A DNA stretch of 34,224 nt from Escherichia coli (GTDB lineage Bacteria; Pseudomonadota; Gammaproteobacteria; Enterobacterales; Enterobacteriaceae). The first letter of the stretch is position 1. Every line of letters begins with the position of its first letter. Made by a program: the position numbers and the translations under genes. Location: the NCBI GenBank assembly GCA_025544715.1, contig GCA_025544715.1_4109.4. One strand, written 5' to 3'. The notes under the pieces are model-generated. The model was given only the letters and a program-made list of their open reading frames with translations. It did no database searches and was not told where the DNA came from. Shown here in pieces: positions 7,717 to 33,078 of the stretch.

Positions 7717-7722
7717 CATAAT

Positions 7723-17828: not shown

Positions 17829-18169
17829 TAGAATTCCCCTTTAATTCTATCACGAGCTTTAATAATAAAGTACATGCTACACACCAACAACCACACGATT
17901 AGACCTGAAAAAACAAGATATTGTGTAATGTGTGGTGTATTATCAATTTGTAACATGTAAATCGCATATATCATCACACCAAATAAAATAAACCCACCTT
18001 GGATAATACTATATAAAACTAAGACTACATTATCATACGAATACAATTTAAAAACAATTTTCCTTTTAAAATACCACAGACTAATTACAATTGAATGATA
18101 ACACAAAAATACAAACATGTAAATTAGCGTGATACCAAGCATTGTATCTGAATTAAAAAACTCAAGCAT
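17828..18169 (-). CDS. paralogous small membrane protein (tandem array), 113 aa
   Basis: N-term MLEFFNSDTMLGITLIYMF; C-term KARDRIKGEF; SD GGAGA. Confidence 0.7.
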   Translation of the reverse strand: MLEFFNSDTMLGITLIYMFVFLCYHSIVISLWYFKRKIVFKLYSYDNVVLVLYSIIQGGFILFGVMIYAIYMLQIDNTPHITQYLVFSGLIVWLLVCSMYFIIKARDRIKGEF

Positions 18170-18234: not shown

Positions 18235-19005
18235 TTAAATTTTTTCAAGGAACAAGTTTTCGCACTGTTCTTCCCAATCGTATGGGTTGTTGTTATATAC
18301 TGCCGAAATCAACAGTGGCATACGCAGTGAAGGCGAACGAAGAGAATCTTCGTGCTTCAACATCCAATTCAGAATTGCTTTACTACCATTACGGTTAATA
18401 CCCTTAGATTCTAAAATGTTAGTCTGATTCATCACGTTCTCAATGTGAATCATGATATCGCTTTTGGTCTGAATCTGTAAGTCAACGTATACAGAACGAG
18501 ACATAAGAGCAGCATAGTGAGCAGACATTTTAGTTTTAGCTTTAGAATCTAATGCTAAATCTTTGTTAGTGATGAATACGATACGACCGTTGAAATCAAA
18601 GCTGTTAGGGATACCGTTGGTGCTCAGGTACTTAGAGCTAGTCATATAAGACACGGTACGCTTACCACTATCCAGTACTGCTTTGAGCAGGTTCATACCG
18701 TCTTCAGAATCAAAGATGCTGTCCATATCGTCCAGTACTAACACGTTGGTTCTATGACGATTCTTGTACAGAACTTCGTACAGAGCCAGAGTAGTCATTT
18801 TACCACTGATGGTAGCTACGTTCCATTCTGCTGCGTCATGAGCTTTCTGGAGGCGTTGTGACAGGGTGTAAGTCTTACCAACACCAGGTGCACCGCTGAC
18901 AACCATACTTTTTACAGTACTGCTATCGTCGAGCAAACACTCAAGAGCAACCATCATGGAGTTGAAGTTTTTCTGGATTTGAATGCTACGTGCTTCTCTG
19001 GTCAT
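18235..19005 (-). CDS. P-loop NTPase (Walker A GAPGVGKT, Walker B VLVLDD), 256 aa
   Basis: ATG with SD GAGGAT; Walker motifs read directly; single-gene unit between a cassette and the next promoter. Confidence 0.75.
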   Translation of the reverse strand: MTREARSIQIQKNFNSMMVALECLLDDSSTVKSMVVSGAPGVGKTYTLSQRLQKAHDAAEWNVATISGKMTTLALYEVLYKNRHRTNVLVLDDMDSIFDSEDGMNLLKAVLDSGKRTVSYMTSSKYLSTNGIPNSFDFNGRIVFITNKDLALDSKAKTKMSAHYAALMSRSVYVDLQIQTKSDIMIHIENVMNQTNILESKGINRNGSKAILNWMLKHEDSLRSPSLRMPLLISAVYNNNPYDWEEQCENLFLEKI

Positions 19006-19033
19006 TTCGTTATCCTCATCAGTTGATGAAATA

Positions 19034-19066
19034 ATTATAGCAAAAAGGGCCGACCGAAGTCAACCC
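19034..19066 (-). terminator. bifunctional cassette: UUCG-tetraloop terminator hairpin containing -35 TTGACT, 18-bp spacer, -10 TATAAT
   Basis: Minus RNA GGGUUGAC-UUCG-GUCGGCCC then UUUUU; TTGACT within hairpin, TATAAT 18 nt downstream; folds only in minus sense (G.U pairs). Confidence 0.7.
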
Positions 19067-19081
19067 TTTTTATAAACATAT

Positions 19082-19408
19082 TTAATACACACAATTACCC
19101 ATATCAATATTTTTACCATTATAGGTAATAATATATTTTATCTTATTAGGTTTAATAACAAAAACTTTTAATTTTTGATTCAATTTATCATTTGAAAAAA
19201 TAGTATACGAACCACTTCCATCTTTAAATACTTCTTGACTTTCAAACATAAACTTCTTTCCATCTATTTTTGCTGTTTGTGTTGTTACATCCAAATACAA
19301 ATTGTAGATAGTGTCAGTTTTTGTGGATTTACATGTTGTTGATGCTTCAGTTTTTGCATTCACTGTTGTTGATAAACACATTAACATAACTAACATTAAC
19401 TTTTTCAT
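19082..19408 (-). CDS. small secreted protein (signal peptide), 108 aa
   Basis: ATG with SD GAGG; N-term MKKLMLVMLMCLSTTVNA. Confidence 0.65.
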   Translation of the reverse strand: MKKLMLVMLMCLSTTVNAKTEASTTCKSTKTDTIYNLYLDVTTQTAKIDGKKFMFESQEVFKDGSGSYTIFSNDKLNQKLKVFVIKPNKIKYIITYNGKNIDMGNCVY

Positions 19409-19428
19409 TTTAATTAACCTCTTTTGTT

Positions 19429-20568
19429 TTACAAAATTACTTCACCAAAAATACCATTGATATCACGTTCAATGATGTATTCACCTTCATGTTCAGCTAA
19501 GAACTTTTTAATGGCTTCGTTAACTTTAGGACGATGAATGTTGTTGAATGTTTCAGTGCAACCATCTCCCTTTTCATAATAACCTTTATTATATAGTTTA
19601 CCACATAACGCAATTGTATGTATTATTATTTCCAATTCTCTAGCAAGTTTCCCACCCACATTCTTATGAAATAAAATGGAAATTTCATTACTCCAAAAAT
19701 TATCTACTTTATATATTTTTTTATAAGATAAGTTTTGTGGACTTAATCTTGCTTTAATAGTTTTGTTTGTAATACCAGCTTTATCCGAATTTTTTGCATA
19801 ATCATTGTGAATATAAAATCTTCCAGGCTTGGAAGTTTTAAATCCTGTTACTGCACACGTGGGACAACCAGAACCAGACAGATGTGAATTTGGTGTTTGT
19901 TGAAATTCACCATGTTCTTTGCATATTATAATAGAGGTTACTTGGTTGTTAATGTAGTCATATAAAGAATAATCATACTTATTTCCGTGTATAAGATGTG
20001 ATTTTTTTATAAATTCACCTAAAGTTTGTTTTAAAGTTTGTTTCGTGCATTCTTGACAACCAATTTTACCAGTAGCTAAGTCAGTAATTGTGGGTTTTTT
20101 TATATCACCACAATCATTACATACTACTTCAATTTTAGTTCTACTAGGAAGTGTAGAGTTAAACGAAGTTATTCCACTATAAGTAAATTTATCATAACCA
20201 TATTTTTTGTTGATGACACTAATATGATTAATAGTGTAATATGGAATATTAATAATATTGTAAAAAATCTTACCATTAAATCCCTGCCTAATAAAATTCG
20301 TGCAGGTGGCTCCAATAACTAACATACCATCGTTATTCACTACAAGTTTGGTTTTTGATTTAGATATATAATCTTGTGATCTATTGATATAGAATCCAAG
20401 AACTCTTGGATCATTTATTTCACCCATAATACTAATAGGATCTTGAGCAATGTTGGATTTTTTTACAAAATTTATATCTTCGGCTTTCATCCACTCAAAA
20501 AGCATTCCATGCTCTTCATAAAAATAAACTTTTTCACCATCTTCATTAAAATAGTACTGTTCAAACAT
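19429..20568 (-). CDS. putative nuclease/homing-endonuclease-like protein (zinc-ribbon CxxC pairs plus GIY-YIG-like T5orf172-type segment), 379 aa
   Basis: ATG with SD AAGGAG; CNDCG...CQEC and HGEF...GSGCPTC motifs; FYIHNDYAKNSDKAGITNKTIKARL resembles T5orf172 signature (from memory, not searched). Confidence 0.45.
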   Translation of the reverse strand: MFEQYYFNEDGEKVYFYEEHGMLFEWMKAEDINFVKKSNIAQDPISIMGEINDPRVLGFYINRSQDYISKSKTKLVVNNDGMLVIGATCTNFIRQGFNGKIFYNIINIPYYTINHISVINKKYGYDKFTYSGITSFNSTLPSRTKIEVVCNDCGDIKKPTITDLATGKIGCQECTKQTLKQTLGEFIKKSHLIHGNKYDYSLYDYINNQVTSIIICKEHGEFQQTPNSHLSGSGCPTCAVTGFKTSKPGRFYIHNDYAKNSDKAGITNKTIKARLSPQNLSYKKIYKVDNFWSNEISILFHKNVGGKLARELEIIIHTIALCGKLYNKGYYEKGDGCTETFNNIHRPKVNEAIKKFLAEHEGEYIIERDINGIFGEVIL

Positions 20569-20797
20569 TACTTAAAACTCCTTTCCAGTACTGAACCCGT
20601 CCAGCACCATTAATCTTAGCTTTAATCTTATCTTTTTCGACAAGACCTTCTTTGAAATCGATGGAAGTATTATCGCACTGAATTACATCTAAGTCAAGTA
20701 CTTCTTGTGTACTTAATGAAGTATTATCTGCAATTTGTTGTAAAGTAATTACATCAGTACCGAAGAATTCAGCTAATCGTATAAAAGATAGTTTCAT
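20561..20797 (-). CDS. hypothetical protein, 78 aa
   Basis: ATG with SD AAGGTAA, directly downstream of cassette 20824-20856. Confidence 0.6.
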   Translation of the reverse strand: MKLSFIRLAEFFGTDVITLQQIADNTSLSTQEVLDLDVIQCDNTSIDFKEGLVEKDKIKAKINGAGRVQYWKGVLSNV

Positions 20798-20823
20798 GTA
20801 TTACCTTATATGTTGATGAAATA

Positions 20824-20856
20824 ATTATAGCAAAAAGGGCTGACCGAAGTCAACCC
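20824..20856 (-). terminator. bifunctional terminator/promoter cassette (copy 2)
   Basis: GATGAAATAATTATAGCAAAAAGGGCTGACCGAAGTCAACCCTTT; same architecture as 19034-19066. Confidence 0.7.
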
Positions 20857-20862
20857 TTTATG

Positions 20863-21222
20863 TTATTCTAATTCACTCATAGTACTAATAGTTAATCCCA
20901 TTTCTTCTGCAATGTTGCATAACATACCAACTGCATTACGAAGAATATCAGTGTTGTCCACCGATAATGATGAGTTTTCATTTACAGTTGAAGACTCAAT
21001 GTAGTACTCAAAATAACGAGAAGTTGAACGCACAACTTTAACACCTTCATACTTCTGTAGTTCAGAGTTGATACGCTCGATTAGTGAATCTTCCAGTGCT
21101 CGATAGTCACCATTCATTCCACGTTTCCATCCATCAGCAGGACGGAAATAAAAAGTTTTTGTACGTTGAATTGTTGAGATTGTTAGTGGGTTGTATTCTG
21201 CGATTTCACTTAAAGATGCCAT
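20863..21222 (-). CDS. hypothetical protein, 119 aa
   Basis: ATG with SD GAGGA. Confidence 0.6.
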   Translation of the reverse strand: MASLSEIAEYNPLTISTIQRTKTFYFRPADGWKRGMNGDYRALEDSLIERINSELQKYEGVKVVRSTSRYFEYYIESSTVNENSSLSVDNTDILRNAVGMLCNIAEEMGLTISTMSELE

Positions 21223-21328
21223 GTTGTATTCCTCATTTGGTGATGTACATAATACAGAAAGATAGAACAGGTGTCCATGTTTATATCTAAAATATCCAAA
21301 TACTTTGGTGTAGCAAATACTACATCAA

Positions 21329-21523
21329 CTAATCCTCGCTGAAGACAACAATAAGGAATGACACGAACAATGCCGCATAACAAGGAGCTATCTTCATGTA
21401 CCACGGAACTTCATAATACCATGTACCCAATTCATCCCACGAAAAGATTATACTCACACCGAAGCCGATTAGCGAAAGTACAATGAAAGAAATCCAGAAA
21501 CGCTTTGAATATACTAATAACAT
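21329..21523 (-). CDS. small membrane protein, 64 aa
   Basis: ATG with SD AAGGA; two hydrophobic segments. Confidence 0.5.
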   Translation of the reverse strand: MLLVYSKRFWISFIVLSLIGFGVSIIFSWDELGTWYYEVPWYMKIAPCYAALFVSFLIVVFSED

Positions 21524-21530
21524 GTTATGT

Positions 21531-21560
21531 TCCTTTATGTGACCGAAGTCAATCCTTTCC
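21531..21560 (-). terminator. degenerate partial copy of the terminator/promoter cassette
   Basis: GTGACCGAAGTCAATCC retains the loop and 3' arm only; lies just past the denV stop. Confidence 0.3.
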
Positions 21561-21561
21561 T

Positions 21562-22077
21562 TTAATAATTATTCATTTCATCTTTGATTTGTTCTTCAAT
21601 TTCGTCGAACATATCAGTACTAGATTCGTTCTTACTACTTACGTTCTGCATATCTTTAACGTACTGTGGACATTCAACATCAGTAAACTTATACCACTTA
21701 GGCTTCATCTGGAGCTTCTCAATCAAACGATCACGAGACATTTTAATCTCTGACTCCGATGGTACGTAGTCATTACAAAACTCAGCAGGGAATCCGCTAA
21801 TGTCGTTTACTTCAGTGTTTTGAATCTTCATACCACGACGCAAACATTCGTTAACAATATCAATATGACGCTTCTGTAAGTACAATAACTTGTTGTAGAA
21901 GAATGTTACATGACCTGAACCCAACAGGTAAGTACTGTTAATTTTGAAATCACGTACACGCTTACGTGCTTGAACGTGTTTTTGTACAGCACCAAATACA
22001 CGTGGGAGTTCACGATATTCAGCCATCAGATGTTGGTCAGCAAGTTCTTTAACGTGTACTAAGTTAATGCGTGTCAT
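21562..22077 (-). CDS. denV: endonuclease V (pyrimidine-dimer DNA glycosylase/AP lyase) homolog with about 33-aa acidic C-terminal extension
   Basis: N-term [31 protein letters not shown]...KRVRDFKI...[10 protein letters not shown] matches T4 endonuclease V as recalled; ATG with SD GAGGATG; preceded by cassette. Confidence 0.9.
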
Positions 22078-22105
22078 GTATTCATCCTCTCGTTTCGATG
22101 AAATG

Positions 22106-22138
22106 ATTATAGCAAAAAGGGCCGACTGAAGTCAACCC
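22106..22138 (-). terminator. bifunctional terminator/promoter cassette (copy 3, loop variant CUUC/CTGA)
   Basis: GATGAAATGATTATAGCAAAAAGGGCCGACTGAAGTCAACCC; drives denV. Confidence 0.65.
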
Positions 22139-22144
22139 TTTTCT

Positions 22145-22414
22145 TTATTCAATGATCCCCAACTTAACAATCTCATACCCATCCAAATATCCATATGAAC
22201 ACTCAGGCGTTTCATAGGATGAACCATCATGAATGCCCTGGCATTGACTTTTAGAACGCTCAAGCAATCGTTGCAGTACTGATACGTCCTCAAGAACGTA
22301 ACACAAGGATACATCTGGGTCTTCCACGATACAGTACTCCAATATATCAAAGGTATTAATGAAAATTACAATCTTAGCGAATTGTTTCTTTTCTTTATTA
22401 TACAGTGCGTACAT
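22145..22414 (-). CDS. hypothetical protein, about 89 aa (start moved to internal ATG)
   Basis: Track start is non-ATG; ATG giving MYALYNKEKK has SD GGAGA and abuts the upstream stop at 22416. Confidence 0.5.
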   Translation of the reverse strand: MYALYNKEKKQFAKIVIFINTFDILEYCIVEDPDVSLCYVLEDVSVLQRLLERSKSQCQGIHDGSSYETPECSYGYLDGYEIVKLGIIE

Positions 22415-22415
22415 A

Positions 22416-22787
22416 TTAATCTCCATAATCAAGTTTAACTAACTTACCACCCAGATACCCAAAGTTTTCTGGCTTCGCATCTGAATAGAAGAAGTCAGTA
22501 CTCAACTCTGATTTTGATGCCAACGTACACAACTCCACCCAAAATAAACCCCTATGTTGCACTGGCTTACAACGTTTCTGTACTGTTATTAAACCAGTGC
22601 ATGATGACCACAAAGTAGGGCAGATACCACTATCACCACGATTGGAGTACTGCATCCATGAACGTTCATTGAGGTTAGCTATCATTCCAGTTAGGAATAA
22701 CTTCCAGCTTTTGAAGGTTGGAATCTTAATAGCGTATTCCCCAATGAGGATAACAGTTCGGGTTGCACCTTTCAAATCTATATTCAT
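22416..22787 (-). CDS. mini protein-kinase-like protein, about 123 aa (start moved to internal ATG)
   Basis: Track start is GTG overlapping upstream gene; ATG 22785-22787 lies 8 nt after upstream stop; motifs GEYAIKIP, DAKPEN, KLDYGD at kinase-typical spacing. Confidence 0.5.
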   Translation of the reverse strand: MNIDLKGATRTVILIGEYAIKIPTFKSWKLFLTGMIANLNERSWMQYSNRGDSGICPTLWSSCTGLITVQKRCKPVQHRGLFWVELCTLASKSELSTDFFYSDAKPENFGYLGGKLVKLDYGD

Positions 22788-22795
22788 ATTTTTAA

Positions 22796-23047
22796 TTAGA
22801 AGAACACAAACCAAGTCCAGAATAAATTCCACACTACAAATAAAGACATAGTAATTTTATGTACAATATCAGCAGTACTGGTCCATCCTCCCCCGTGTCC
22901 TATCCCATTTATGAATAGAACTAAGAACAATATACCATTTACTACAATAGTACATACTAAGTACACAAACACATTCCATGCAAGTTCAGGGGATACTAAA
23001 GTAAATGGTAAAACAATTAGTAGTATTAGAAATAATAAAATTTTCAT
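22796..23047 (-). CDS. small membrane protein, 83 aa
   Basis: ATG with SD GAGGCG; hydrophobic throughout. Confidence 0.6.
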   Translation of the reverse strand: MKILLFLILLIVLPFTLVSPELAWNVFVYLVCTIVVNGILFLVLFINGIGHGGGWTSTADIVHKITMSLFVVWNLFWTWFVFF

Positions 23048-23086
23048 TTATCGCCTCACTTAATTAACGTGACATATCACGTAATA

Positions 23087-23263
23087 TTAGTACGAATCAG
23101 ATTCCCAGTACTCGATTGCTTCTTTCAGCAATTCTTTAGCACGTTGTTTTGCAATGCGAGCGGGAAACTGATATGTGTACATTAACTGACGCTTCACTTC
23201 ATTCAGTGAAAGCTGTTCATGGTACAGTGCATCCATCAGTCGATTACGAGTACGTAGTTTCAT
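23087..23263 (-). CDS. hypothetical small protein, 58 aa (below track cutoff)
   Basis: Hand-translated: MKLRTRNRLMDALYHEQLSLNEVKRQLMYTYQFPARIAKQRAKELLKEAIEYWESDSY; fills gap between neighbours. Confidence 0.4.
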   Translation of the reverse strand: MKLRTRNRLMDALYHEQLSLNEVKRQLMYTYQFPARIAKQRAKELLKEAIEYWESDSY

Positions 23264-23274
23264 ATAAGTTATCC

Positions 23275-23829
23275 TTATTTCAAAGAATCATAGTAAGCAG
23301 TGTCAAAGATTGGAGTCATAATAACATAGTCAATACGGTCAATGTAAGTTGAACTCCACATTTCAGGTTTATCATATAAATGACGTTCACGTTCATTAAT
23401 AATAGTTAATACTTCTTCCAATTTACTACGTGAAGCCATCAAAGTATCACGGGAGCCATAAGTGAAGTACTCAGTCCATTGATATTCATATGCAGTATAG
23501 ATAGATTGAATAGTACCATCTTTGAAATGAGCTAAAGCATAACCTTTCTCTACAAAGTTATCAGGTGGAAGAACACCATCTGGATTAGTTTTCAATGCTT
23601 GTGCTAACTTTTCTTTAATTTCAGTTAACGTGCATACTGAACGAATGTTCTTCAGGTTTGATACTTGAAAATCACTGTACTTTCCAAAGAAAAAGACACG
23701 CCAATCTTTAGGTTCATTATCAGATACGGTAACATCAGGGTGATGGGCGAGTAAACGAAGAAGTCCAGCTTTGTGACCGTTAATGTAGATTTCATGGATG
23801 TGGTTAGCAGTTTTCTTAAAAGTAATCAT
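23275..23829 (-). CDS. hypothetical protein, 184 aa
   Basis: ATG with SD GAGGAA; first gene after promoter 23877-23904. Confidence 0.65.
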   Translation of the reverse strand: MITFKKTANHIHEIYINGHKAGLLRLLAHHPDVTVSDNEPKDWRVFFFGKYSDFQVSNLKNIRSVCTLTEIKEKLAQALKTNPDGVLPPDNFVEKGYALAHFKDGTIQSIYTAYEYQWTEYFTYGSRDTLMASRSKLEEVLTIINERERHLYDKPEMWSSTYIDRIDYVIMTPIFDTAYYDSLK

Positions 23830-23876
23830 GGTAGTTCCTCGATTGTAGGGATGAGAAGTTCATCCCCTTGATAAGC

Positions 23877-23904
23877 ATTATACAGTACTGAATGTGTTTG
23901 TCAA
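23877..23904 (-). promoter_or_regulatory. sigma70-like promoter TTGACA-16-TATAAT with CAGTACTG box abutting the -10
   Basis: Minus-strand read: TTGACA (plus 23899-23904), 16-nt spacer ending in CAGTACTG, TATAAT (plus 23877-23882); hairpin GGGATGA..TCATCCC follows at about 23848-23868. Confidence 0.55.
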
Positions 23905-23905
23905 T

Positions 23906-24286
23906 TCAAAATAAATTCATTTCATGTGCGTATTGTGGTTCAAGATAAGATAAGTTTTTGAAACTGTCTTTCAATTCCGCATCATCTACGTACACAGTAC
24001 CAGGTATATTCCCCATAGTGAAGCCAACCCAAACAGTCATGTTTCCAGTTCCTAAGCGGGGCATTGATAGCGTCCCATCAGGTGAAACATCAAACGCTAC
24101 ACTAAAGTCATCCGTTACAACTTCCGAACCATTTTCCAGAATAATACAACCACGTTCTTTAAGCTTCTGAATGTGGATAGCAGCCTCTACAGCACGTTTA
24201 AAGTTATAGTAAGACTCTTTATCCTCAAACATAGATTGTTTAACCAAACGCTTGTTTAGCTCGGTTACTTTGTACATTTGTCGCAT
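23906..24286 (-). CDS. hypothetical protein, about 126 aa (start moved to internal ATG)
   Basis: ATG 24284-24286 shares one base with upstream stop (TAATG); track start would overlap upstream gene by 16 nt. Confidence 0.55.
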   Translation of the reverse strand: MRQMYKVTELNKRLVKQSMFEDKESYYNFKRAVEAAIHIQKLKERGCIILENGSEVVTDDFSVAFDVSPDGTLSMPRLGTGNMTVWVGFTMGNIPGTVYVDDAELKDSFKNLSYLEPQYAHEMNLF

Positions 24287-24540
24287 TATTTCAACACCCA
24301 TAGTGGTAGGATTTCATAAGAACCTGGAGGTGCTGGATTGATAATCTCAGGGTATTCAGTACTGTTAGGATTACCACCAGCATTGAACTCAGCAAGTAAT
24401 AATTCGAGTTCATTCCTATCATGAACAACAAACACGCAATATCCAGTTCCTTCTTCAAGAACTGTAGTTGAACCCGCACAATCCCATACGGTATCAATAC
24501 ATAATAATTCTTTAGTGTCTTTATTACGCAATGCAAACAT
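24286..24540 (-). CDS. hypothetical protein, 84 aa
   Basis: ATG with SD AGGAGA. Confidence 0.6.
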   Translation of the reverse strand: MFALRNKDTKELLCIDTVWDCAGSTTVLEEGTGYCVFVVHDRNELELLLAEFNAGGNPNSTEYPEIINPAPPGSYEILPLWVLK

Positions 24541-24549
24541 ATATGTCTC

Positions 24550-24894
24550 CTATCGATTCGGCATATTCTTACGTAGTCGCAAGAGAAATTCAACTACTGA
24601 CCATGTTGTAATGAAGGCAATATAAGTTGCAAGGAATCCGGTAAGAATAAATGCAACCAGCGTACTACCATTTGGTGCATCAGTTTTAATGCCGATGACA
24701 CCATCGGCTACAGTGAAACATGTAGCCATTAATGTGTAACCTACGTACAACACAAAGAAAAACTCATTCTCCATTGAAGGATAGAAACGGTTAAACACTT
24801 TATAAAATTTAAAGTACAGTAGGATTATACCAACAAAGGCATAGAATGTAAACAGTGTTGTTATAATATATGAGATTAGGTTCAAATTATACAT
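24550..24894 (-). CDS. paralogous small membrane protein (second array), about 114 aa (start moved to internal ATG)
   Basis: Track start GTG; ATG 24892-24894 with SD GGAG just after upstream stop; C-term RLRKNMPNR. Confidence 0.6.
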   Translation of the reverse strand: MYNLNLISYIITTLFTFYAFVGIILLYFKFYKVFNRFYPSMENEFFFVLYVGYTLMATCFTVADGVIGIKTDAPNGSTLVAFILTGFLATYIAFITTWSVVEFLLRLRKNMPNR

Positions 24895-24895
24895 A

Positions 24896-25237
24896 TCAAC
24901 GCTCCGGTAGATTATCACGTAATGTTTTAATTCGATTATACATTTTCATACCAATATTACCAAAGATACCATATCCAAGTACTAAAATGTATGCAATAAG
25001 CATAGTAATAATTACTATAGTACCAAAACTATAATGTACACTACTGATACCCATTGTAGTTTCAACGATTATTTGAGAAACTGAAAGAATCAAAAGTACA
25101 ACTACAATTGGATGATTTGGGTACATTCGGTTGAACAACGTTTTGTACTTAAAGAAGCACAGTACTCCACCGAATAAGAAGTAAACAATGTAAATGCAAG
25201 CAACAGCATAGGCAAACATGTTAGTGTAATAAATCAT
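24896..25237 (-). CDS. paralogous small membrane protein (second array), about 113 aa (start moved to internal ATG)
   Basis: Track start TTG; ATG two codons in with SD AAGGA; C-term TLRDNLPER. Confidence 0.6.
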   Translation of the reverse strand: MIYYTNMFAYAVACIYIVYFLFGGVLCFFKYKTLFNRMYPNHPIVVVLLILSVSQIIVETTMGISSVHYSFGTIVIITMLIAYILVLGYGIFGNIGMKMYNRIKTLRDNLPER

Positions 25238-25246
25238 TACCAATCC

Positions 25247-25585
25247 TTACTTTTCAGGGATATTAGAACGCCATATATCAATGCGATGAACTAGTCCAAA
25301 GAACAACCATACTGGAACGGCAGCTATCATAACAACAAATGAAAACCCAGTCAAGACCGATACCAGATTTAATTCATCAGTACTATACCCACATATCAGT
25401 ACTTCTAATATTCCCCACGTACATGCACAAAACATCAAGAATGAAATGGGGGCATCATAGTAGATACGTTCATATAAAGTAGTGTATCGGAAGAATGCAA
25501 TAATGTAGCAAAACATATAATACACCCAAACCAAAGATACTACATAAAATGATACTTTGTTTATTAATTCAAAATATTGTTCCAT
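25247..25585 (-). CDS. paralogous small membrane protein (second array), 112 aa
   Basis: ATG; C-term IWRSNIPEK. Confidence 0.65.
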   Translation of the reverse strand: MEQYFELINKVSFYVVSLVWVYYMFCYIIAFFRYTTLYERIYYDAPISFLMFCACTWGILEVLICGYSTDELNLVSVLTGFSFVVMIAAVPVWLFFGLVHRIDIWRSNIPEK

Positions 25586-25587
25586 TG

Positions 25588-25869
25588 TTACCCCAATATA
25601 TATTCAGAGAGTAATGTATTAGCTTCATCTTTGTTCTTAAGGTAATACATGTAATATAGATTCGGTTCACCATCTTTAGCACTCAAATCGAAGTACTTTA
25701 AACTATGTACTTTCATAGTAAAAACAAATAATGACTTAAAACCAATCTCACCGTACTTAACAAACAGTTCATCCAAATGAATGTAACTTTTTGATTTGAA
25801 TAATTCTTTAACGTCTGCATCAATTTCAGATAAAAGATGCTTACCTATTAAGTTTTCAAATGAACGCAT
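25588..25869 (-). CDS. hypothetical protein, 93 aa
   Basis: ATG with SD AAGGAT. Confidence 0.6.
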   Translation of the reverse strand: MRSFENLIGKHLLSEIDADVKELFKSKSYIHLDELFVKYGEIGFKSLFVFTMKVHSLKYFDLSAKDGEPNLYYMYYLKNKDEANTLLSEYILG

Positions 25870-25873
25870 GATT

Positions 25874-26287
25874 TTATCCTTTTACACAATTTGACATAAT
25901 GTAAACACGTTTAATAAAAGAACTTTCATACACGTACTTCAACTTGCCATTCTCACGTAAGCGGTGGAAAACATCACCTTTGTTGGTACTCCACGTGGAA
26001 CCAGTACTGACATCTACATTAGCCATTGACCCACTGGTTACATTAATACCATACTTAAAACTAAAAGTTTCTCCGTCTTCAACTAATGTCACAGGCGTGC
26101 TACGTTCATATTCAAATACAAGTTTAGAACCAATCATCTCATATGATTTCAATTTACACTTCATTACACCCATTTCATCTTGAGTGGGTAGATTTCTTTC
26201 AAATATATCAGAAACTTCGTTTGCAGAAGCAAATGAACTCATGGTCATTAATACAATACCAGTTACAATTAAAATAATATTTTTCAT
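25874..26287 (-). CDS. secreted protein (signal peptide), 137 aa; paralog of 27056..27475
   Basis: N-term MKNIILIVTGIVLMTMSSFASA; shared motifs FSFKYG, LKYVYES, C-terminal NC(V)K. Confidence 0.65.
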   Translation of the reverse strand: MKNIILIVTGIVLMTMSSFASANEVSDIFERNLPTQDEMGVMKCKLKSYEMIGSKLVFEYERSTPVTLVEDGETFSFKYGINVTSGSMANVDVSTGSTWSTNKGDVFHRLRENGKLKYVYESSFIKRVYIMSNCVKG

Positions 26288-26344
26288 GATAGGTTTATCT
26301 CTTTGTTTACGGTTTATTAAGAATACATCAGAACATCAGTTCTG

Positions 26345-26986
26345 TCAATAAAAAACTGGATCTTCTTCAGTAATTGGTATTTCTCTACGCACATCACACG
26401 AAAGAGGATCAGTAATGAATACATTCCCATCTTTATCCATCATTACATTACTTGAATGAATGTCTGGTACAAATCGCCCGTGAAACTCTTTCATGATGTT
26501 AGCTGCGACCGTTGCAATTGCAATCTCTTCAGAATTTCCACGCATATCATTCACTGAAGTTGCGTACTGACCAGCATGTGCATACGAATACAAATCACCA
26601 ATTTTAGTACTAACAAAGTCATCATAATTATTTTTTTGTTTAATTATAGGATAGTACTTGTCCATCTCATACCATCCAAAGTTTCCTTGTTCGTTGGCAC
26701 TGTAGATCACTGGAAGAAACTTGGTTCCTGCGTTTTCAATGCAGTACTTTGCATAAGCACGAAAACCATCCCAGCGGGAAGTGGTTACTTTAAATGCACG
26801 TCCAGGATAGTTTTTATGTTCAACTACTACAGAGTACATCCCCATTCCAAGCAAAGTAAGTCCAGCAGCTTTAACTTGTGGAAAGATTACGCGTTCAGCA
26901 TAAGGAATATCAAACTCCATCGCACAACGAGTTTTTGATGGACGCAAAATGTCAATTAAAGTTTTGAATATTTCTTGCTTAGTCAT
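26345..26986 (-). CDS. protein-kinase-like protein, about 213 aa (start moved to internal ATG)
   Basis: Track start ATGATG lies inside the promoter -10; ATG 26984-26986 has SD AGAGGAT; motifs LLGMGMYSVV, AFKV, PDIHSSNVMMDKDGNVFITDP. Confidence 0.55.
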   Translation of the reverse strand: MTKQEIFKTLIDILRPSKTRCAMEFDIPYAERVIFPQVKAAGLTLLGMGMYSVVVEHKNYPGRAFKVTTSRWDGFRAYAKYCIENAGTKFLPVIYSANEQGNFGWYEMDKYYPIIKQKNNYDDFVSTKIGDLYSYAHAGQYATSVNDMRGNSEEIAIATVAANIMKEFHGRFVPDIHSSNVMMDKDGNVFITDPLSCDVRREIPITEEDPVFY

Positions 26987-27014
26987 TACTTTATCCTCTG
27001 TAGTTAATATCAAC

Positions 27015-27047
27015 ATCATAACAAAAAAGGCTGACCGAAGTCAACCC
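27015..27047 (-). terminator. bifunctional terminator/promoter cassette (copy 4; -10 TATGAT)
   Basis: AAAAAAGGCTGACCGAAGTCAACCCTTTT; TTGACT in hairpin, TATGAT about 18 nt downstream. Confidence 0.65.
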
Positions 27048-27055
27048 TTTTATTA

Positions 27056-27475
27056 TCATTTACAGTTTTCTATAACTATTGCACGTTTTAGTATTTTACT
27101 TTCATAAACATACTTAAGATGACCTTCTTCACGAATACGATTGAACACATATCCTAGTTTATCTTTTAGTACTGAAGCCGTATCAATGTCAAGATTAACT
27201 TCAACCCCTCCTGTTAATTTAACTTTATATGTAAAGCTAAAAGCATCCCCAGATTCAACCAATGGGACTACTTGTTCATACGTATTCAACATAACTCGTT
27301 CATCATTAACTAAATTATATATTACAATATCACAAGTTTTTACCCCAATTTCCTCTAAGGTAGGAGCATTGTCTACTATAACATCTTTTACTGTATTAGC
27401 AACCTGTTTAGCATCTGCTGCATATACATTAAAACTAAAAAGTACTAAAATAATACTTAAAAAAATCTTTTTCAT
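27056..27475 (-). CDS. secreted protein (signal peptide), 139 aa; paralog of 25874..26287
   Basis: N-term MKKIFLSIILVLFSFNVYA; SD AAGGAT. Confidence 0.65.
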   Translation of the reverse strand: MKKIFLSIILVLFSFNVYAADAKQVANTVKDVIVDNAPTLEEIGVKTCDIVIYNLVNDERVMLNTYEQVVPLVESGDAFSFTYKVKLTGGVEVNLDIDTASVLKDKLGYVFNRIREEGHLKYVYESKILKRAIVIENCK

Positions 27476-27484
27476 TTTATATCC

Positions 27485-27802
27485 TTATTTTATTTTACAC
27501 GTCATATCCGGTTGTGCTGGTTTATTATTTTTAAAAGGATTAGGTTTTTTATCTTTCCTTTTATCTTTTAATGGTTTTTTGTCTTCTTTTTTATCTTTGT
27601 CTTTTTTATTGGTATCAGGTTCAGTTGGAGTATTACATTGTGCTGGTGATGGGTTTGTTGGGTTACAGCTATTGTCTGGTGGGAGTTTTACTTCTTTACA
27701 ATTGTAAAATAGTAAACTTTTATTTGTGGTTAAATTATGAAAACGATAATTTATTTCATTATTATAATAAATTGTTTTAGTACTTTCAATGTCATTACAC
27801 AT
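27485..27802 (-). CDS. hypothetical Cys-containing protein with Lys/Asp-rich C-terminal tail, about 105 aa
   Basis: Track start GTG; first ATG two codons in; no clear SD (possible translational coupling). Confidence 0.4.
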   Translation of the reverse strand: MCNDIESTKTIYYNNEINYRFHNLTTNKSLLFYNCKEVKLPPDNSCNPTNPSPAQCNTPTEPDTNKKDKDKKEDKKPLKDKRKDKKPNPFKNNKPAQPDMTCKIK

Positions 27803-27812
27803 TGCCACGGAA

Positions 27813-28064
27813 TCACCGAAACTCTTTTTCTATTCCGAGTACATCTGTCTTACGCTCAGATAGTATACCTGAAGTATATGAATCTTTGTTGTCAAACGCA
27901 TTAAATCCAATAGATCTGTCGGTGTCGTGTATTATTCCTTTTGTGTATGAGGTAGTATAGAACTCCCCATTTCTGAAATCCTGCCTTGCTACGGAGCAAT
28001 GATAATCTGCACCATAAGCAGTACTGGAAAATAATACAATTCCAAATATAATATATTTTTTCAT
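27813..28064 (-). CDS. small secreted protein (signal peptide), 83 aa
   Basis: N-term MKKYIIFGIVLFSSTAYGA; downstream of cassette copy 5. Confidence 0.6.
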   Translation of the reverse strand: MKKYIIFGIVLFSSTAYGADYHCSVARQDFRNGEFYTTSYTKGIIHDTDRSIGFNAFDNKDSYTSGILSERKTDVLGIEKEFR

Positions 28065-28105
28065 TGTAATCCTCTTCTTAATTCCTCTTTTGTATTTACA
28101 AAAAA

Positions 28106-28125
28106 AGGCTGACCGAAGTCAACCT
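28106..28125 (-). terminator. terminator/promoter cassette (copy 5), hairpin core
   Basis: AGGCTGACCGAAGTCAACCTT; the downstream -10 is less clear (TAAATA-like). Confidence 0.55.
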
Positions 28126-28134
28126 TTAGTTTTA

Positions 28135-29412
28135 TCATTTACCGTATTTGCTCATGATGTCTTTTTCCCAGGTAGTTACATTTCCATTTTCGTAATCACG
28201 GAAAGAGTCATCAAGTGTAGTCAATGCATAATCATATGCCTCACCGGATTCAACATCAATATCAACAGCACCATTCACTACATCAGTCCACGCTTTTTGT
28301 AGTTTACGAGCGTTGTTACCAACTTTATCTTTAATCCAACTAAGATTTCGGTTTATACTCTTCTTATCAGCACCAGCTTTTTCACCAACATCTGCAACCC
28401 ACTGCATTAATTTCTGTAGTTCGTTATGGGATTTTTCAGTCATTTGGCGGTCTTGTGACAGTTCAGCTTCCATGTCATCAATTTCTTCGTCTGAATGAAC
28501 ATCGTTCTGTTCTACTGCACCTTCTTCATCATCACGCATCAGATAACCATCTCGTGTAACCTTCTCACCGTGATCAGCTTCATACTTTTTCATAGTATTG
28601 AATGCAGCATCCATTGCAGTTACAAAACGACTCTTTTCACCTTGTACATAAGATTTAAGTGCATCGTTAACTGCATCAGATACTAATTTAATCTTATCGT
28701 CTTTACCTTCCAGACGGTTTTCTAACTTAGCTAGTACATTCTTAACTTGTTGAGCATTAGCACGGTCTTCTTTACCAATACTATCAAATGTTTTAAGTAC
28801 TCTTTCAAGACTTACTTCCTCTTGTGCAGGCACATCACCTGGTGGCGTACCTTCAAGTGCACGCATTATAGTACTGAATACTTCAGTTGGTTCAGTACTG
28901 GTATTTCCACTCATTGCATCAAGTACAGCTTGTGCTTTGACTTTTAATTCTTCTTTAGGTACAGATTGTAATTCTTTCACAATACCTTGGATAAGTTGTG
29001 GTTTATTAGCAAAAATCTTACCTAACTTATCAGACAATTCTTTGACAGGGTTAACCGCCTTTGGTGCTTCTTGTTTTGGTTCTTCTTTCGCAGGAGAAGA
29101 CTTTTCTTTTTCTTCACGTTCCATATCAGCTAGACGTTGTTTTTGTGTAGCATTAAGAAGTCCCAATGAATTAACGTAACGTAGTTTTTCTAGCTCAGTC
29201 ATGTTCTCAGTACTCTTAACTTCACCTGCTTCTGCGTTTGCTTTACCAGCTAGACCAGTTCCTTGGTTACGTGATCCACGTGAACCTTGACCTGCTTGAT
29301 AACTATTTGGTCGGCGGTTGCGTTCACTCCATTTATCCGAGTGACCAGCCATGTTACCACCATTTTTATCAGTAAAATTACTTGGCATTTGATTTCTCTC
29401 CATAGATTTCAT
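28135..29412 (-). CDS. hypothetical charged protein, 425 aa; shares N-terminal domain with 29658..30041
   Basis: ATG verified; shared motifs YVNSLGLL and KELQSVPKEELKVKA. Confidence 0.7.
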   Translation of the reverse strand: MKSMERNQMPSNFTDKNGGNMAGHSDKWSERNRRPNSYQAGQGSRGSRNQGTGLAGKANAEAGEVKSTENMTELEKLRYVNSLGLLNATQKQRLADMEREEKEKSSPAKEEPKQEAPKAVNPVKELSDKLGKIFANKPQLIQGIVKELQSVPKEELKVKAQAVLDAMSGNTSTEPTEVFSTIMRALEGTPPGDVPAQEEVSLERVLKTFDSIGKEDRANAQQVKNVLAKLENRLEGKDDKIKLVSDAVNDALKSYVQGEKSRFVTAMDAAFNTMKKYEADHGEKVTRDGYLMRDDEEGAVEQNDVHSDEEIDDMEAELSQDRQMTEKSHNELQKLMQWVADVGEKAGADKKSINRNLSWIKDKVGNNARKLQKAWTDVVNGAVDIDVESGEAYDYALTTLDDSFRDYENGNVTTWEKDIMSKYGK

Positions 29413-29435
29413 TTTTTCTCTATGTCTATATTTAT

Positions 29436-29469
29436 AGTATAAAGAAAAGGCTGACCGAAGTCAACCTTA
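29436..29469 (-). terminator. bifunctional terminator/promoter cassette (copy 6; -10 TATACT)
   Basis: AAGGCTGACCGAAGTCAACCTT; TTGACT-17-TATACT. Confidence 0.6.
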
Positions 29470-29474
29470 TTTTG

Positions 29475-29588
29475 TTACTTAGATTGTTCTAGTGCAGGTG
29501 GATTTACTTTTTGATCCACTACATAGAATACACCACCAACCAGTACTGCGGCGATGAGTGCAGCAACTACAAATTTCAAACCTTGCAT
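29475..29588 (-). CDS. 37-aa single-helix membrane micro-protein, own transcription unit
   Basis: Hand-translated MQGLKFVVAALIAAVLVGGVFYVVDQKVNPPALEQSK; bracketed by cassette copies 6 and 7. Confidence 0.4.
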   Translation of the reverse strand: MQGLKFVVAALIAAVLVGGVFYVVDQKVNPPALEQSK

Positions 29589-29617
29589 ATATGATACCTC
29601 AGATATATTGAGAAGTT

Positions 29618-29650
29618 ATGATACAACAAAGGGCTGACCTTAGTCAACCC
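29618..29650 (-). terminator. bifunctional terminator/promoter cassette (copy 7, loop UAAG; -10 TATCAT)
   Basis: GGGCTGACCTTAGTCAACCC immediately after the stop of 29658..30041; TTGACT-18-TATCAT. Confidence 0.6.
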
Positions 29651-29657
29651 CTTTTTA

Positions 29658-30041
29658 TTACTTCTTGAACTTATGTTTTTCACTTTCGATTGCATTCACG
29701 ATTTCATCATGAATTTTACGAAGATTGTGAGTTTTCTTGAGAGAATCATGCAATGCACGGAATGCAGAGTGTACTGTTGCTTTAAAGTGCTCTTTAGGAG
29801 TTACTTTAAGTTTCTCGATAATATCACGTACATAGATTGGGTGATCCTCAAACACACGATTAAGCTCATGACCTAGTGATTCTAGGCTAAATGCTTTTTC
29901 ACGGGATGGACGATCATGTGCAAGACTTTGGTCTGGTTTTAGAAGACCTAGTGAATCTAGATACTTGTGCTTATGTGCATTGTCTAGACCAGAAATATCA
30001 ACATCATGGGATGGATCTTTCTTATTCCATTTATCAACCAT
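29658..30041 (-). CDS. hypothetical protein, 127 aa; shares domain with 28135..29412
   Basis: ATG with SD GGAG; motifs YLDSLGLL and EKLKVTPKEHFKA; TATAAATA-like sequence about 35 nt upstream. Confidence 0.65.
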   Translation of the reverse strand: MVDKWNKKDPSHDVDISGLDNAHKHKYLDSLGLLKPDQSLAHDRPSREKAFSLESLGHELNRVFEDHPIYVRDIIEKLKVTPKEHFKATVHSAFRALHDSLKKTHNLRKIHDEIVNAIESEKHKFKK

Positions 30042-30157
30042 TTTTATAACTCCTATAAGAGATAAATTTTTACTATAATATTTATAGTTCCTTTGTCATT
30101 TATATCGAATGACATAAAACATTATATCATAATAAGAATGGTTGTCCCAAAGTTAAA

Positions 30158-30601
30158 TTAGTACTGGTCAAGCTCAGATGTAAAAATGAATGCATCCATG
30201 TCTTCCAACGTGAGTTTTAAGTCTGGTACGTACTTAAGAATAACACACTCTGGCTTCTTAATAGCAGCTTGATAAGCAGCAATGGCAAGGGATTCCAATT
30301 GCTGTGCTGTATAATTTTTACGTTCTGCATTAAAAACTTTGTTTTTGATATCACCACCTGGGAGTTTTTCAAACTCACGCATTACAGCAGCAAGAACATC
30401 GTCAGCAGTGTTACTATATACCCATTGGGGTAATTGCATTACATTATAAATCACACCACTATCATCCATCAAAGAGATCCATTTGTACCCATCACTAGCA
30501 CTGAACAAACGCCCTTTTAGTACTGTATTATTGGTTAAATTTACAAATGCAAAAATATCTTGTTCGTTAAGTTCAATACTATTAACATTTACCCAACTCA
30601 T
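30158..30601 (-). CDS. hypothetical protein, about 147 aa (start moved to internal ATG)
   Basis: Track start TTG; ATG giving MSWVNVNSIEL lies after upstream stop. Confidence 0.55.
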   Translation of the reverse strand: MSWVNVNSIELNEQDIFAFVNLTNNTVLKGRLFSASDGYKWISLMDDSGVIYNVMQLPQWVYSNTADDVLAAVMREFEKLPGGDIKNKVFNAERKNYTAQQLESLAIAAYQAAIKKPECVILKYVPDLKLTLEDMDAFIFTSELDQY

Positions 30602-30614
30602 TACGATTCCCCAT

Positions 30615-31187
30615 TCATAAATCACGAACAATATTCATTAAACACAATTTAGGCTTTATAGCATTCAAAACCCATATGCACTCTTTGTAAGTAGCTATTA
30701 TATCATCTAAATGCTCAGTCACAATACTTTCTTGGAAATATTCTTCATCATTGAGCTTTGCTAATTTAGTAACATCACATGTAGGTACTATAGGTCTGGA
30801 TTGTACACCCATGCCATTATTAATATTAGTAAAATGTACAAAATTGTATTTCACTACACCTTTATCTAGATTCACTATACATGACAAGTTTTCCAACTCA
30901 GTTAGTTCTTTACTACAAGTAACATTAATGAAACCAGCATTATAGGCTCTATAATCATCTACTGATATCTCAAAATCATTACGCTGAAATATAAGTGAAA
31001 TGAGTTGGTCCAGTGGTTTGACATTCATATATTTTAATGAATTTACGTATGATACTTCAATCTTAGATGAAATTATCTTTTTACTAAGTGCAGTCAATTC
31101 TTTATTAGATTTAACTGTTAATACTATAGGTTTAAACCTAGAACTCTTATTTTTCTTTGATACTTTAAAACGACCTTTACGATTCAT
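30615..31187 (-). CDS. hypothetical protein, about 190 aa (start moved to internal ATG)
   Basis: Track start GTG; ATG giving MNRKGRFKVSKK has SD GAGGAA; basic N-terminus. Confidence 0.55.
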   Translation of the reverse strand: MNRKGRFKVSKKNKSSRFKPIVLTVKSNKELTALSKKIISSKIEVSYVNSLKYMNVKPLDQLISLIFQRNDFEISVDDYRAYNAGFINVTCSKELTELENLSCIVNLDKGVVKYNFVHFTNINNGMGVQSRPIVPTCDVTKLAKLNDEEYFQESIVTEHLDDIIATYKECIWVLNAIKPKLCLMNIVRDL

Positions 31188-31194
31188 ATTTTCC

Positions 31195-31416
31195 TCAATT
31201 AATAATTTCACATTTGATGCGTGGCTTATATAACATAATTAACCCATTTTTAAGTACAATGATTGTTCCTCTGTCAGTAATAGAAACGTTTTTAATTATA
31301 CTTTTTTTATATGTTTCAACATATTTCTCTTCGTAATTTATACATTTAACATATTCTTTTTGTTTAGCACTTACAACAGTACTGAATAATATCAGTACAA
31401 GTACTATATATTTCAT
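31195..31416 (-). CDS. small secreted protein (signal peptide), 73 aa
   Basis: N-term MKYIVLVLILFSTVVSA; SD AAGGTA. Confidence 0.6.
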   Translation of the reverse strand: MKYIVLVLILFSTVVSAKQKEYVKCINYEEKYVETYKKSIIKNVSITDRGTIIVLKNGLIMLYKPRIKCEIIN

Positions 31417-31468
31417 TACAATACCTTATAAACAAAAAGGAATTCATTTAAGAATTCCTATTTTACAA

Positions 31469-31762
31469 TCATTTATCTAACATACCATTGTGTAAACGTT
31501 CATATACTTCAGTTCGACGTAAATTAACAATATCTTCTGCGTATTTTAATGTAAATGCCCATGCTTTTGGATGTACGTTAAGCTTCATACGAATTCGATT
31601 TTTCATCAACTCTCCACTTAAACGAATAAATTCGTGTACACCACGACTACCGTATTCAGTAATTAAATCATTAATGTACATATTACGAAGAGTTTCATCT
31701 GCACATTCTTTAACCATTTCTACGTCAGCGACGATGCTTTCATTAACTGAAGTACTGATCAT
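31469..31762 (-). CDS. hypothetical protein, 97 aa
   Basis: ATG with SD AAGGTA. Confidence 0.6.
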   Translation of the reverse strand: MISTSVNESIVADVEMVKECADETLRNMYINDLITEYGSRGVHEFIRLSGELMKNRIRMKLNVHPKAWAFTLKYAEDIVNLRRTEVYERLHNGMLDK

Positions 31763-31773
31763 TTTAATTTACC

Positions 31774-32040
31774 TTATTTAAATTCGACTGTAATTTTATC
31801 ACCTTCAACTACGAACTTACAGTTGTAGCGACGTGCCATATCCATATACATATGCTCAGAGTACCAGGGAACATCAATAATCGGATGCTCTGCGTATTGT
31901 AGAACTTCACGGTCGCCAACTGTAGTGATGACGAAAGGAATGTTCATCTCTCGTAAAAACAATTCAGCACCAGGAGAACGATTAATAAATTCAGTATCAT
32001 TACGTAAAGTAAATCCATTATATTGTAATTTAAGCTTCAT
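31774..32040 (-). CDS. hypothetical protein, 88 aa
   Basis: ATG verified. Confidence 0.6.
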   Translation of the reverse strand: MKLKLQYNGFTLRNDTEFINRSPGAELFLREMNIPFVITTVGDREVLQYAEHPIIDVPWYSEHMYMDMARRYNCKFVVEGDKITVEFK

Positions 32041-32054
32041 ATGTTATCCTCTAT

Positions 32055-32399
32055 TCAATACCATTCTTTAAAACCATTAAGTTCGGCTATGTGAGTAATT
32101 ATAACACATATAACATTCAGGTCAAGTATAATTTGATCATAATTTAATTTTATACGATCATCATTATATGCCCTAAAGACTACATCGTAATCAAAGAAAT
32201 TTGCGTTTTCATCATTCATTGAAACGATTCGGTATCTACGTCTTCCATCTGTATTGAATATTGTTAAACACTGTTGAAACTTTCTTATTAACTGTTTAGA
32301 TAGGATATTATAATATTCAATATCTTTTTGTGAATTACGTGGGTCATCAGGAAGATAGAATGAAACAAATTTCTTTAATTCTATTTGAGTTTTATCCAT
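32055..32399 (-). CDS. hypothetical protein, 114 aa
   Basis: ATG verified; 8-nt overlap with upstream gene. Confidence 0.6.
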   Translation of the reverse strand: MDKTQIELKKFVSFYLPDDPRNSQKDIEYYNILSKQLIRKFQQCLTIFNTDGRRRYRIVSMNDENANFFDYDVVFRAYNDDRIKLNYDQIILDLNVICVIITHIAELNGFKEWY

Positions 32400-32832
32400 A
32401 TATTACCTCATGTGTTTGTCTTTTACTTTGTCGGAACTCATCCTTTGCTTCCTTAACTGACATGATACGAACTAATTTAGCACTACCGCAATAGTACTGA
32501 ACCTGATTACGACCAATGTCTACATGGTTGTCTGGAACTTCATATACAGATATAGCAAACCCAGCACGATGCAATTTACCCAAGTCCATAGTGAAGAATC
32601 TGAACAAATCTTTCAAACTTTGACAGCCAAATACCCATCCTCTTTTGATTGAATAGATCCCATCCTCAGTTGGTTCAGGTTGGAATTGAGAAGGTGTAGT
32701 CATGAGCAAACGGTCAAATCCATTTTTAGTACTGTATCTGGATGAATACCGTGCAAACGGGCCAACAGTTAGGGCTGGTTTTAAGTCAGGTTCGATATAA
32801 CTAAATTTAAGTTCAAAACGATATACAAACAT
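32392..32832 (-). CDS. hypothetical protein, 146 aa
   Basis: ATG with SD AGAGGA; first gene after cassette copy 8. Confidence 0.65.
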   Translation of the reverse strand: MFVYRFELKFSYIEPDLKPALTVGPFARYSSRYSTKNGFDRLLMTTPSQFQPEPTEDGIYSIKRGWVFGCQSLKDLFRFFTMDLGKLHRAGFAISVYEVPDNHVDIGRNQVQYYCGSAKLVRIMSVKEAKDEFRQSKRQTHEVIYG

Positions 32833-32860
32833 AATTAAAATCCTCTAATGTATTAATAGA

Positions 32861-32894
32861 ATTATAACAAAAAAGGCTGACCGAAGTCAACCTT
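32861..32894 (-). terminator. bifunctional terminator/promoter cassette (copy 8; -10 TATAAT)
   Basis: AAAAAAGGCTGACCGAAGTCAACCTTTG; stop codon of the upstream gene lies inside the 3' arm. Confidence 0.65.
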
Positions 32895-33078
32895 TGTTTT
32901 GAAGTTCTTGAACCAATTGTCGTACTTCGTTAATATTTTTACACTGCTTTACAGTGAAGTAATCATACTTACGACCATAGGTTCTTGGGTCATCACCTTC
33001 CATATACTGCTGCACATCAAAGATTTGTAAGTAGGGATGCTGCATAACACGAATATTATCACTTTGATAAATCAACAT
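32887..33078 (-). CDS. hypothetical small protein, about 63 aa (start moved to internal ATG)
   Basis: ATG giving MLIYQSDNIRV has SD AAGGAT after upstream stop 33083; track start would overlap by 50 nt. Confidence 0.5.
   Translation of the reverse strand: MLIYQSDNIRVMQHPYLQIFDVQQYMEGDDPRTYGRKYDYFTVKQCKNINEVRQLVQELQNKG

Follow-up and report, generated by a model that had tools for sequence, protein, structure and literature searches.

The gene studied here lies on the minus strand at positions 26345-26986 of the window, by which we mean the whole stretch of 34,224 nucleotides of DNA that was analysed, and runs from an ATG at 26986-26984 to a TGA at 26347-26345. It codes for a protein of 213 amino acids that is assigned below to the T7 gp0.7 (T7K) family, contains the kinase domain only and corresponds to gp205 of phage 121Q, G17_00108 of G17, M2K_0292 of SHEFM2K and WNN14432.1 of Sharanji. 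Exactly these coordinates and this length had been given, with no mention of the strand, in the preliminary description. The longest alternative ORF starts at an ATG at 27019, codes for 224 amino acids, the length adopted in certain GenBank records (121Q, Sharanji). That ATG falls within the predicted -10 hexamer described below, a start of the type MTK..., MT or MK... is common to all 22 aligned homologues, and a Shine-Dalgarno sequence, GAGGA, can be read directly on the minus strand at 26994-26998, with 7 nt between it and the ATG at 26986. For these three reasons the 213-amino-acid form is preferred; the sequence makes it the credible start and the 224-amino-acid form is disfavoured. The RefSeq model in 121Q (gp205, L005 2632-3306, 675 nt) starts at the ATG inside the predicted -10 hexamer.

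A consensus scan of the upstream region found a sigma-70-type promoter-like site on the minus strand at 27015-27044, made up of TTGACT (-35), an 18-nt spacer and a TG-extended TATGAT (-10), with 10/12 matches and the TG, and located 22 nt before the Shine-Dalgarno sequence and ATG of the kinase gene. The -35 hexamer is held in the 5' arm of an intrinsic-terminator-like hairpin at 27023-27047 (minus strand), GGGTTGAC-TTCG-GTCAGCC followed by a T-run. This hairpin is part of an element of ~42-70 nt (repeat families D1/D2) that is present in 7-8 minus-strand copies in the window, 7 of them at no more than 3 mismatches compared to 0 expected by chance. The copies, which span 19028-32896, were located at 19042-19066, 20832-20856, 22114-22138, 27023-27047, 28101-28125, 29443-29467, 29612-29653 and 32869-32893. 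In this element the hairpin is followed by an extended -10, TGnTATAAT in most copies and TGTTATGAT in copy 4, and then by a Shine-Dalgarno sequence and a start codon; the spacer measures 18 nt in the element copies counted. The kinase gene had been called the first gene after the fourth copy of this cassette, and, counted along the window, copy number four (27009-27050) indeed adjoins it upstream. Equivalent hairpins are annotated as terminators in phage G17. From its sequence, the element looks like a combined terminator and host-type promoter punctuating the leftward gene array, and the promoter sequence alone suggests that the kinase gene is expressed early by the host RNA polymerase. Promoter-like sites in the region overall showed no excess, as 21 were found and 26.6 were expected in shuffles. 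The orthologue in phage Munch is part of a tight operon and has no such promoter unit of its own, and the linkage between promoter and kinase gene is therefore not treated as a family feature. Directly after the stop codon, the same kind of scan identified a short, weak terminator-like hairpin on the minus strand, CAGAAC-TGAT-GTTCTG, at 26329-26344; a -35-like hexamer, TTGACA, overlaps it.

The window comes from an Asteriusvirus, that is a 121Q/PBECO4/SP27-like myovirus of ~350 kb infecting E. coli, and its DNA is 98% identical to that of phage SHEFM2K and 97-98% identical to that of 121Q, PBECO4, SP27, G17, Sharanji, phAPEC6 and others. The kinase protein is 100% identical in at least nine phages (SP27, SHEFM2K, slurp01, PBECO4, 121Q, ECO103 4-12-1, EC22.5-2, UB and CRJP21), 60-62% identical in the Salmonella phages Munch, 7t3, SE_PL and PHA46 and the Klebsiella phage fENko-Kae01, 55% identical in EJP2 and 46% identical in the Erwinia phage Hallingskeid. 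It is flanked by two genes paralogous to each other, at 25874-26287 and 27056-27475, both on the minus strand, which code for proteins of 137 and 139 amino acids with 39% identity; the N-terminus of each resembles a signal peptide, and neither matches a PHROG or Pfam family. The 137-amino-acid gene downstream of the kinase gene is present in the window and in SHEFM2K; 121Q, G17 and the majority of relatives lack it, and this accounts for the 77% coverage in the DNA comparison between the window and its relatives.

Several other parts of the window contain repeated genes. A plus-strand array of eight tandem ORFs of ~250-400 amino acids extends from 5396 to 14704; seven of them are RCC1-repeat (beta-propeller) paralogues that have diverged from one another to 24-36% identity, and the ORF at 9030-9785 (plus strand) inside the array has no RCC1 match and matches a PHROG of no known function. 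The copy number and sizes of this array differ from those in Sharanji. Six head-to-tail ORFs of ~61-81 amino acids, mutually paralogous with 28-42% identity, lie on the minus strand at 2009-3221, and their Sharanji counterpart is a ~3.5-kb stretch with almost no annotated genes. Small tandem paralogues of 112-122 amino acids were found on the minus strand at two places: three adjacent ones at 24550-25585, which resemble hydrophobic membrane proteins and two of which are linked by BLAST at 24% identity, and a pair with 53% identity at 17490-18169, which is also visible as a 120-nt DNA repeat. The first 1600 nucleotides are poor in ORFs and of higher GC content (0.39), with no ORF of 60 amino acids or more, no tRNA and no Rfam match; short tandem repeats are located at 490-557, 1343-1374 and 1776-1805. 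The tRNA and Rfam scans of the whole window yielded nothing. An AAA ATPase (18235-19005), an HNH endonuclease (19429-20568) and a DenV-type glycosylase (21562-22077) were assigned, as was a minus-strand virion protein at 28135-29412 (annotated 'virion structural protein', phrog_20398). The last is 425 amino acids long compared to ~495-509 in 121Q, G17 and SHEFM2K, which suggests a length polymorphism in this low-complexity, acidic protein.

Family membership and catalytic residues

The ORF had been described as protein-kinase-like from its letters alone, with a profile search proposed as the check and a lack of kinase-superfamily similarity as the result that would count against it. The similarity was found, far beyond chance. 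The protein gave a full-length match to PHROG 15752 (E 4.7e-92) and a match to PHROG 2828, the T7 gp0.7 family (E 8.1e-17). By BLASTP it aligned with T7 gp0.7 at E 6e-9 and ~27% identity over 164 residues, in a register that pairs window residues 41-196 with T7K 68-216, and with JSS1_004 of Salmonella phage JSS1 at E 3e-14, and an HMM of the jumbophage clade matched T7K at E 1.7e-18. A newer Pfam accession, PF27024, is assigned in precomputed data to 27/27 close homologues, and an exhaustive profile search for the family recovered 1,470 representative clusters at E <= 1e-3. On this sequence evidence, the window protein is almost certainly a member of the T7 gp0.7 (T7K) kinase family.

The local Pfam scan of the kinase protein returned no family at E <= 10, PF00069 and PF07714 included, and the NCBIfam scan returned no kinase match. 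The Pfam result is uninformative for the kinase assignment, since T7K, used as the positive control, was also without a kinase match in the same copy of Pfam; for the same reason the check proposed beforehand would misfire if it were made with Pfam alone. Searches of PDB sequences with phmmer and with a profile gave sub-significant kinase matches (E about 0.3-1.2), which served for the alignment register alone. One such HMMER alignment, to PAK4, places PDIHSS...ITDP on RDIKSD...LSDF, in agreement with the motif assignment previously made by eye.

That assignment proved right in each of its elements. All the motifs quoted at the time are present, LLGMGMYSVV at residues 45-54, AFKV at 64-67 and PDIHSSNVMMDKDGNVFITDP at 174-194, and they contain the Gly loop G47-x-G49, the beta3 lysine K66, the catalytic loop D175-x-H-x-x-N180 and the DFG equivalent D193-P-L. 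The Gly loop, G47-M-G49-M-Y-S52, fits the family pattern G-x-G-x-[FY]-S; the codons of G47-M-G49-M occupy 26838-26849 on the minus strand. The codon of the ATP-anchoring K66 occupies 26789-26791, those of the catalytic loop D175-I-H177-S-S-N180 occupy 26447-26464, and those of D193-P194-L195-S196, the 'DPx' equivalent of DFG with the Ser that follows it, occupy 26399-26410, all on the same strand. In the alignments, G49 corresponds to T7K G76, K66 to K93 and D175, H177 and N180 to D195, H197 and N200 of the T7K loop D195-M-H-S-G-N200; the BLASTP register and the motif positions place D193-P-L-S196 on D213-P-V-S216. T7K (UniProt P00513, kinase domain residues 1-242; PHROG 2828, CDD PHA00451) thus shares with the window protein the Gly loop, the lysine and the motifs D-x-H-x-x-N-x-M and [IV]-T-D-P-x-S. 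It differs in having DPV where the window protein has DPL and a Gly where the latter has S179, and in coming from a 40-kb podovirus as opposed to a ~350-kb myovirus. Gly is found at position 179 in 96 of 175 relatives.

When the protein was aligned with T7K, JSS1_004 and a diverse set of 31 relatives, the columns G49, K66, D175, H177, N180, M182 and D193 were invariant, and K66, D175, H177, N180 and M182 were so in the alignment of the 22 homologues as well. In a broader hmmalign alignment of 175 members, among them the experimentally validated T7K and JSS1_004, these last five residues were kept in 160-172 members, with K66 in 172 and G49 in 173; D175, N180 and D193 were found in 163/163 aligned sequences and P194 in 160 of 161 aligned members. 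Published mutants bear on several of these positions. The T7K mutant G76F is catalytically dead (PMC13645617), and the attenuating mutations G200W, N201T and M203T of JSS1_004 map to the shared catalytic loop. The DPV motif and the inhibitory autophosphorylation site S216 have been described for T7K, together with jumbophage variants in which the third position of the DP motif differs from Val (PMC13645617), as is the case for the Leu of the window protein.

The S216 equivalent has been stated to be 'conserved in all variants' (PMC13645617). It is present in the window protein as S196. However, among the 27 closest relatives this column holds Ser in 2, Ala in 14 and Gly in 10 (Ala and Gly together in about 24-25), and in the hmmalign alignment of 175 members a Ser was found in 46 of 53 members with a long C-terminal tail as against 48 of 97 kinase-only members. 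These sequence counts are at odds with the published statement and indicate that it needs qualifying. Ala or Gly in place of the autoinhibitory Ser would leave most kinases of this clade unable to switch themselves off.

Domain architecture and search for a second kinase gene

The window protein is predicted to adopt a protein-kinase fold, the structural model having a bilobal core with a five-stranded N-lobe and alphaC together with the catalytic and Mg-binding loops. With residue 213 as its last, the chain stops 20 residues past D193, and in this part the model has a single short strand; the activation segment, the APE motif and the alphaF-alphaI C-lobe are absent from the window protein. 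In this it resembles T7K, also a truncated kinase that ends shortly after the DFG equivalent; the window gene is, like that of T7K, a candidate early gene, predicted to lie behind a host-type promoter. In the alignment there is no counterpart of the C-terminal SO domain of T7K (residues 243-359), which binds DNA, directs the enzyme preferentially to proteins that bind nucleic acids, postpones its autoinhibition and stops transcription in the host. The possibility of a 'split T7K' with a separately encoded SO-like protein was considered and rejected, as none was found in the whole window (phmmer E >= 0.64). A C-terminal basic SO/DNA-binding domain is typical of Autographiviridae members but does not define the kinase domain family itself, and a kinase-only architecture was seen in 97 of the 161 family members retrieved. 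It is shared by the jumbophage homologues, with 99.5-100% identity between the window protein and those of G17, Sharanji and 121Q and 62% for that of Munch. The model further shows a clade-specific N-terminal extension, predicted as three helices at residues 3-40, and a predicted insert at residues 125-165.

Compared to eukaryotic-like Ser/Thr kinases (PF00069; PknB, MAPK, PAK4), the window protein has DPL for DFG and a His for the catalytic-loop Lys at +2, lacks the activation loop, APE and alphaF-alphaI, and carries the family-specific N-terminal helical extension. In some metagenomic relatives, several T7K-like kinase domains follow one another in tandem, and as many as 8 stretches were matched: P0036 (1021 amino acids), P0037 (1343), P0039, P0040, P0042 (572) and P0054 (813). 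In P0042, two kinase domains are visibly complete, each bearing a separate set of G-loop, K, DxHxxN and TDP motifs. The structural neighbours of the kinase studied here include a 194-amino-acid protein of phage RaK2, H6X4G3 (TMq 0.51).

According to the preliminary description, one early region contained a pair of divergent kinase-like genes. This was not borne out, as no other kinase-like ORF was found in the window. All other ORFs of 170 amino acids or more on both strands were compared to PHROGs and Pfam, and the unassigned ones also to NCBIfam or PDB sequences, and none was kinase-like; the family HMM and a motif regular expression, applied to all window ORFs of 60 amino acids or more, detected no further kinase, and hhalign on the ORFs at 3151-3822 and 14685-15347 showed neither to be kinase-like. 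Sharanji gp063 (WNN14351.1) was considered as a candidate for the other kinase of the window and rejected, since its gene is ~46 kb away from the T7K homologue, beyond the limits of the window, and has no homologue in it. It codes for a protein of 194 amino acids (L006 2027-2611, minus strand) with the motifs GAGSSRIV, VIKV, RDIRKQN and LDYG and a weak match to Pfam Pkinase (E 0.0024, below the cut-off). Asteriusvirus genomes do carry a second minimal kinase-like gene, gp063, outside the window.

Proposed function and significance

The window protein is likely to be an active T7K-family protein kinase that acts on host proteins. Its gene would be transcribed soon after infection by the host sigma-70 RNA polymerase from TTGACT-18-TGTTATGAT in the upstream hairpin. 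The protein would bind Mg-ATP via the G47-x-G49 loop, K66 and D193, with DPL in place of DFG, and D175 and N180 would carry out phosphate transfer, as expected of a Ser/Thr(/Tyr) protein kinase. As there is no activation segment, P+1 loop or alphaF-alphaI, little selectivity for sequence motifs is expected, like in T7K, and many host (and phage) proteins would be phosphorylated. The protein would probably serve in taking over the host and, if T7K and JSS1_004 are a guide, in weakening anti-phage defence proteins, and S196 may permit a self-limiting autophosphorylation. Those members of the family that have been characterised were shown to phosphorylate host proteins (PMC13645617, PMC12345140), and a T7 phage without SO still phosphorylates ~31% as many peptides as the wild type (PMC13645617).

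JSS1_004 inactivates DndFGH, QatABCD, SIR2+HerA and DUF4297+HerA by phosphorylation, and its kinase-domain motifs are common to the window protein. However, it needs both its kinase and its shut-off domains to counter Dnd (PMC12345140), and an equivalent anti-Dnd role is not to be assumed for the window kinase, which has no shut-off domain. A specific anti-defence role, argued by analogy, is plausible and a little short of probable. As the SO domain is missing, neither DNA binding, nor a focus on nucleic-acid-binding proteins, nor a kinase-independent shut-off of host transcription is expected. The RefSeq product text of the 121Q and PBECO4 (NC_027364) proteins reads 'protein kinase; inhibitor of host transcription; positively regulates RNaseIII; negatively on RNaseE'; this text is copied wholesale from T7 gp0.7 and over-reaches, because the domain for kinase-independent shut-off of host transcription is absent.

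Several other explanations can be weighed against this reading. One is that the protein is no longer catalytic and, as a pseudokinase or ATP-binding scaffold, exerts its effect by attaching to a host factor. However, G47/G49, K66, D175, N180 and D193 are all retained and are invariant across the family, and T7K, with the same reduced layout, is hyperactive, which makes a loss of catalysis very unlikely. A kinase for a non-protein substrate, be it a small molecule, a lipid, a nucleotide or RNA, would have precedents in the aminoglycoside phosphotransferases and in the minimal archaeal RNA kinase Ark1, and is given as little credence.

Within the preferred reading of an active protein kinase, a kinase that, having lost the SO domain, is selective for one or a few host or phage targets, for instance RNA polymerase, RNase E or RNase III in line with the classical T7 model, and is no promiscuous anti-defence enzyme, represents a sub-case. 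The modelled N-terminal helices (residues 3-40) and the insert at 125-165 could form a docking surface for such targets. However, there is no activation segment or substrate-binding lobe to confer motif selectivity, and the 4/4 T7K homologues tested were hyperpromiscuous (PMC13645617), so that this sub-case appears unlikely. It is also conceivable, though less likely than not, that the jumbophage kinase, which lacks SO, departs from T7K in its mode of action, either as an untargeted, freely diffusing and hyperpromiscuous enzyme or as one re-specialised via the N-terminal helices and the 125-165 insert. An untargeted, hyperpromiscuous kinase would offer broad anti-defence cover to a 350-kb phage.

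The identification of the gene product as a kinase is correct and was already known. A 'protein kinase' annotation exists in 121Q, G17 (via CDD PHA00451), SHEFM2K, UB, phAPEC6, JP4 and others; the Sharanji paper (2025) regards the gene product as a homologue of the T7 kinase that may counter host defences, and also names a second kinase; and the G17 and Munch proteins are listed by Bartolec et al. (Nature 2026, PMC13645617) as diverged jumbophage homologues without the SO domain. The question of what an SO-less T7K does has likewise been raised in the literature (PMC13645617). The present analysis adds a residue map onto T7K, the 213-amino-acid start, the promoter-in-hairpin unit upstream and the finding that the window contains a single kinase gene.

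Recent work has revealed that T7-family kinases are hyperpromiscuous and disarm many bacterial defence systems, which makes each phage lineage that carries one relevant to the arms race with bacteria and to the choice of therapeutic phages, and Asteriusvirus phages have been proposed for therapy. The kinase-only variant described here represents a natural experiment on how the kinase domain acts without the DNA-binding domain.
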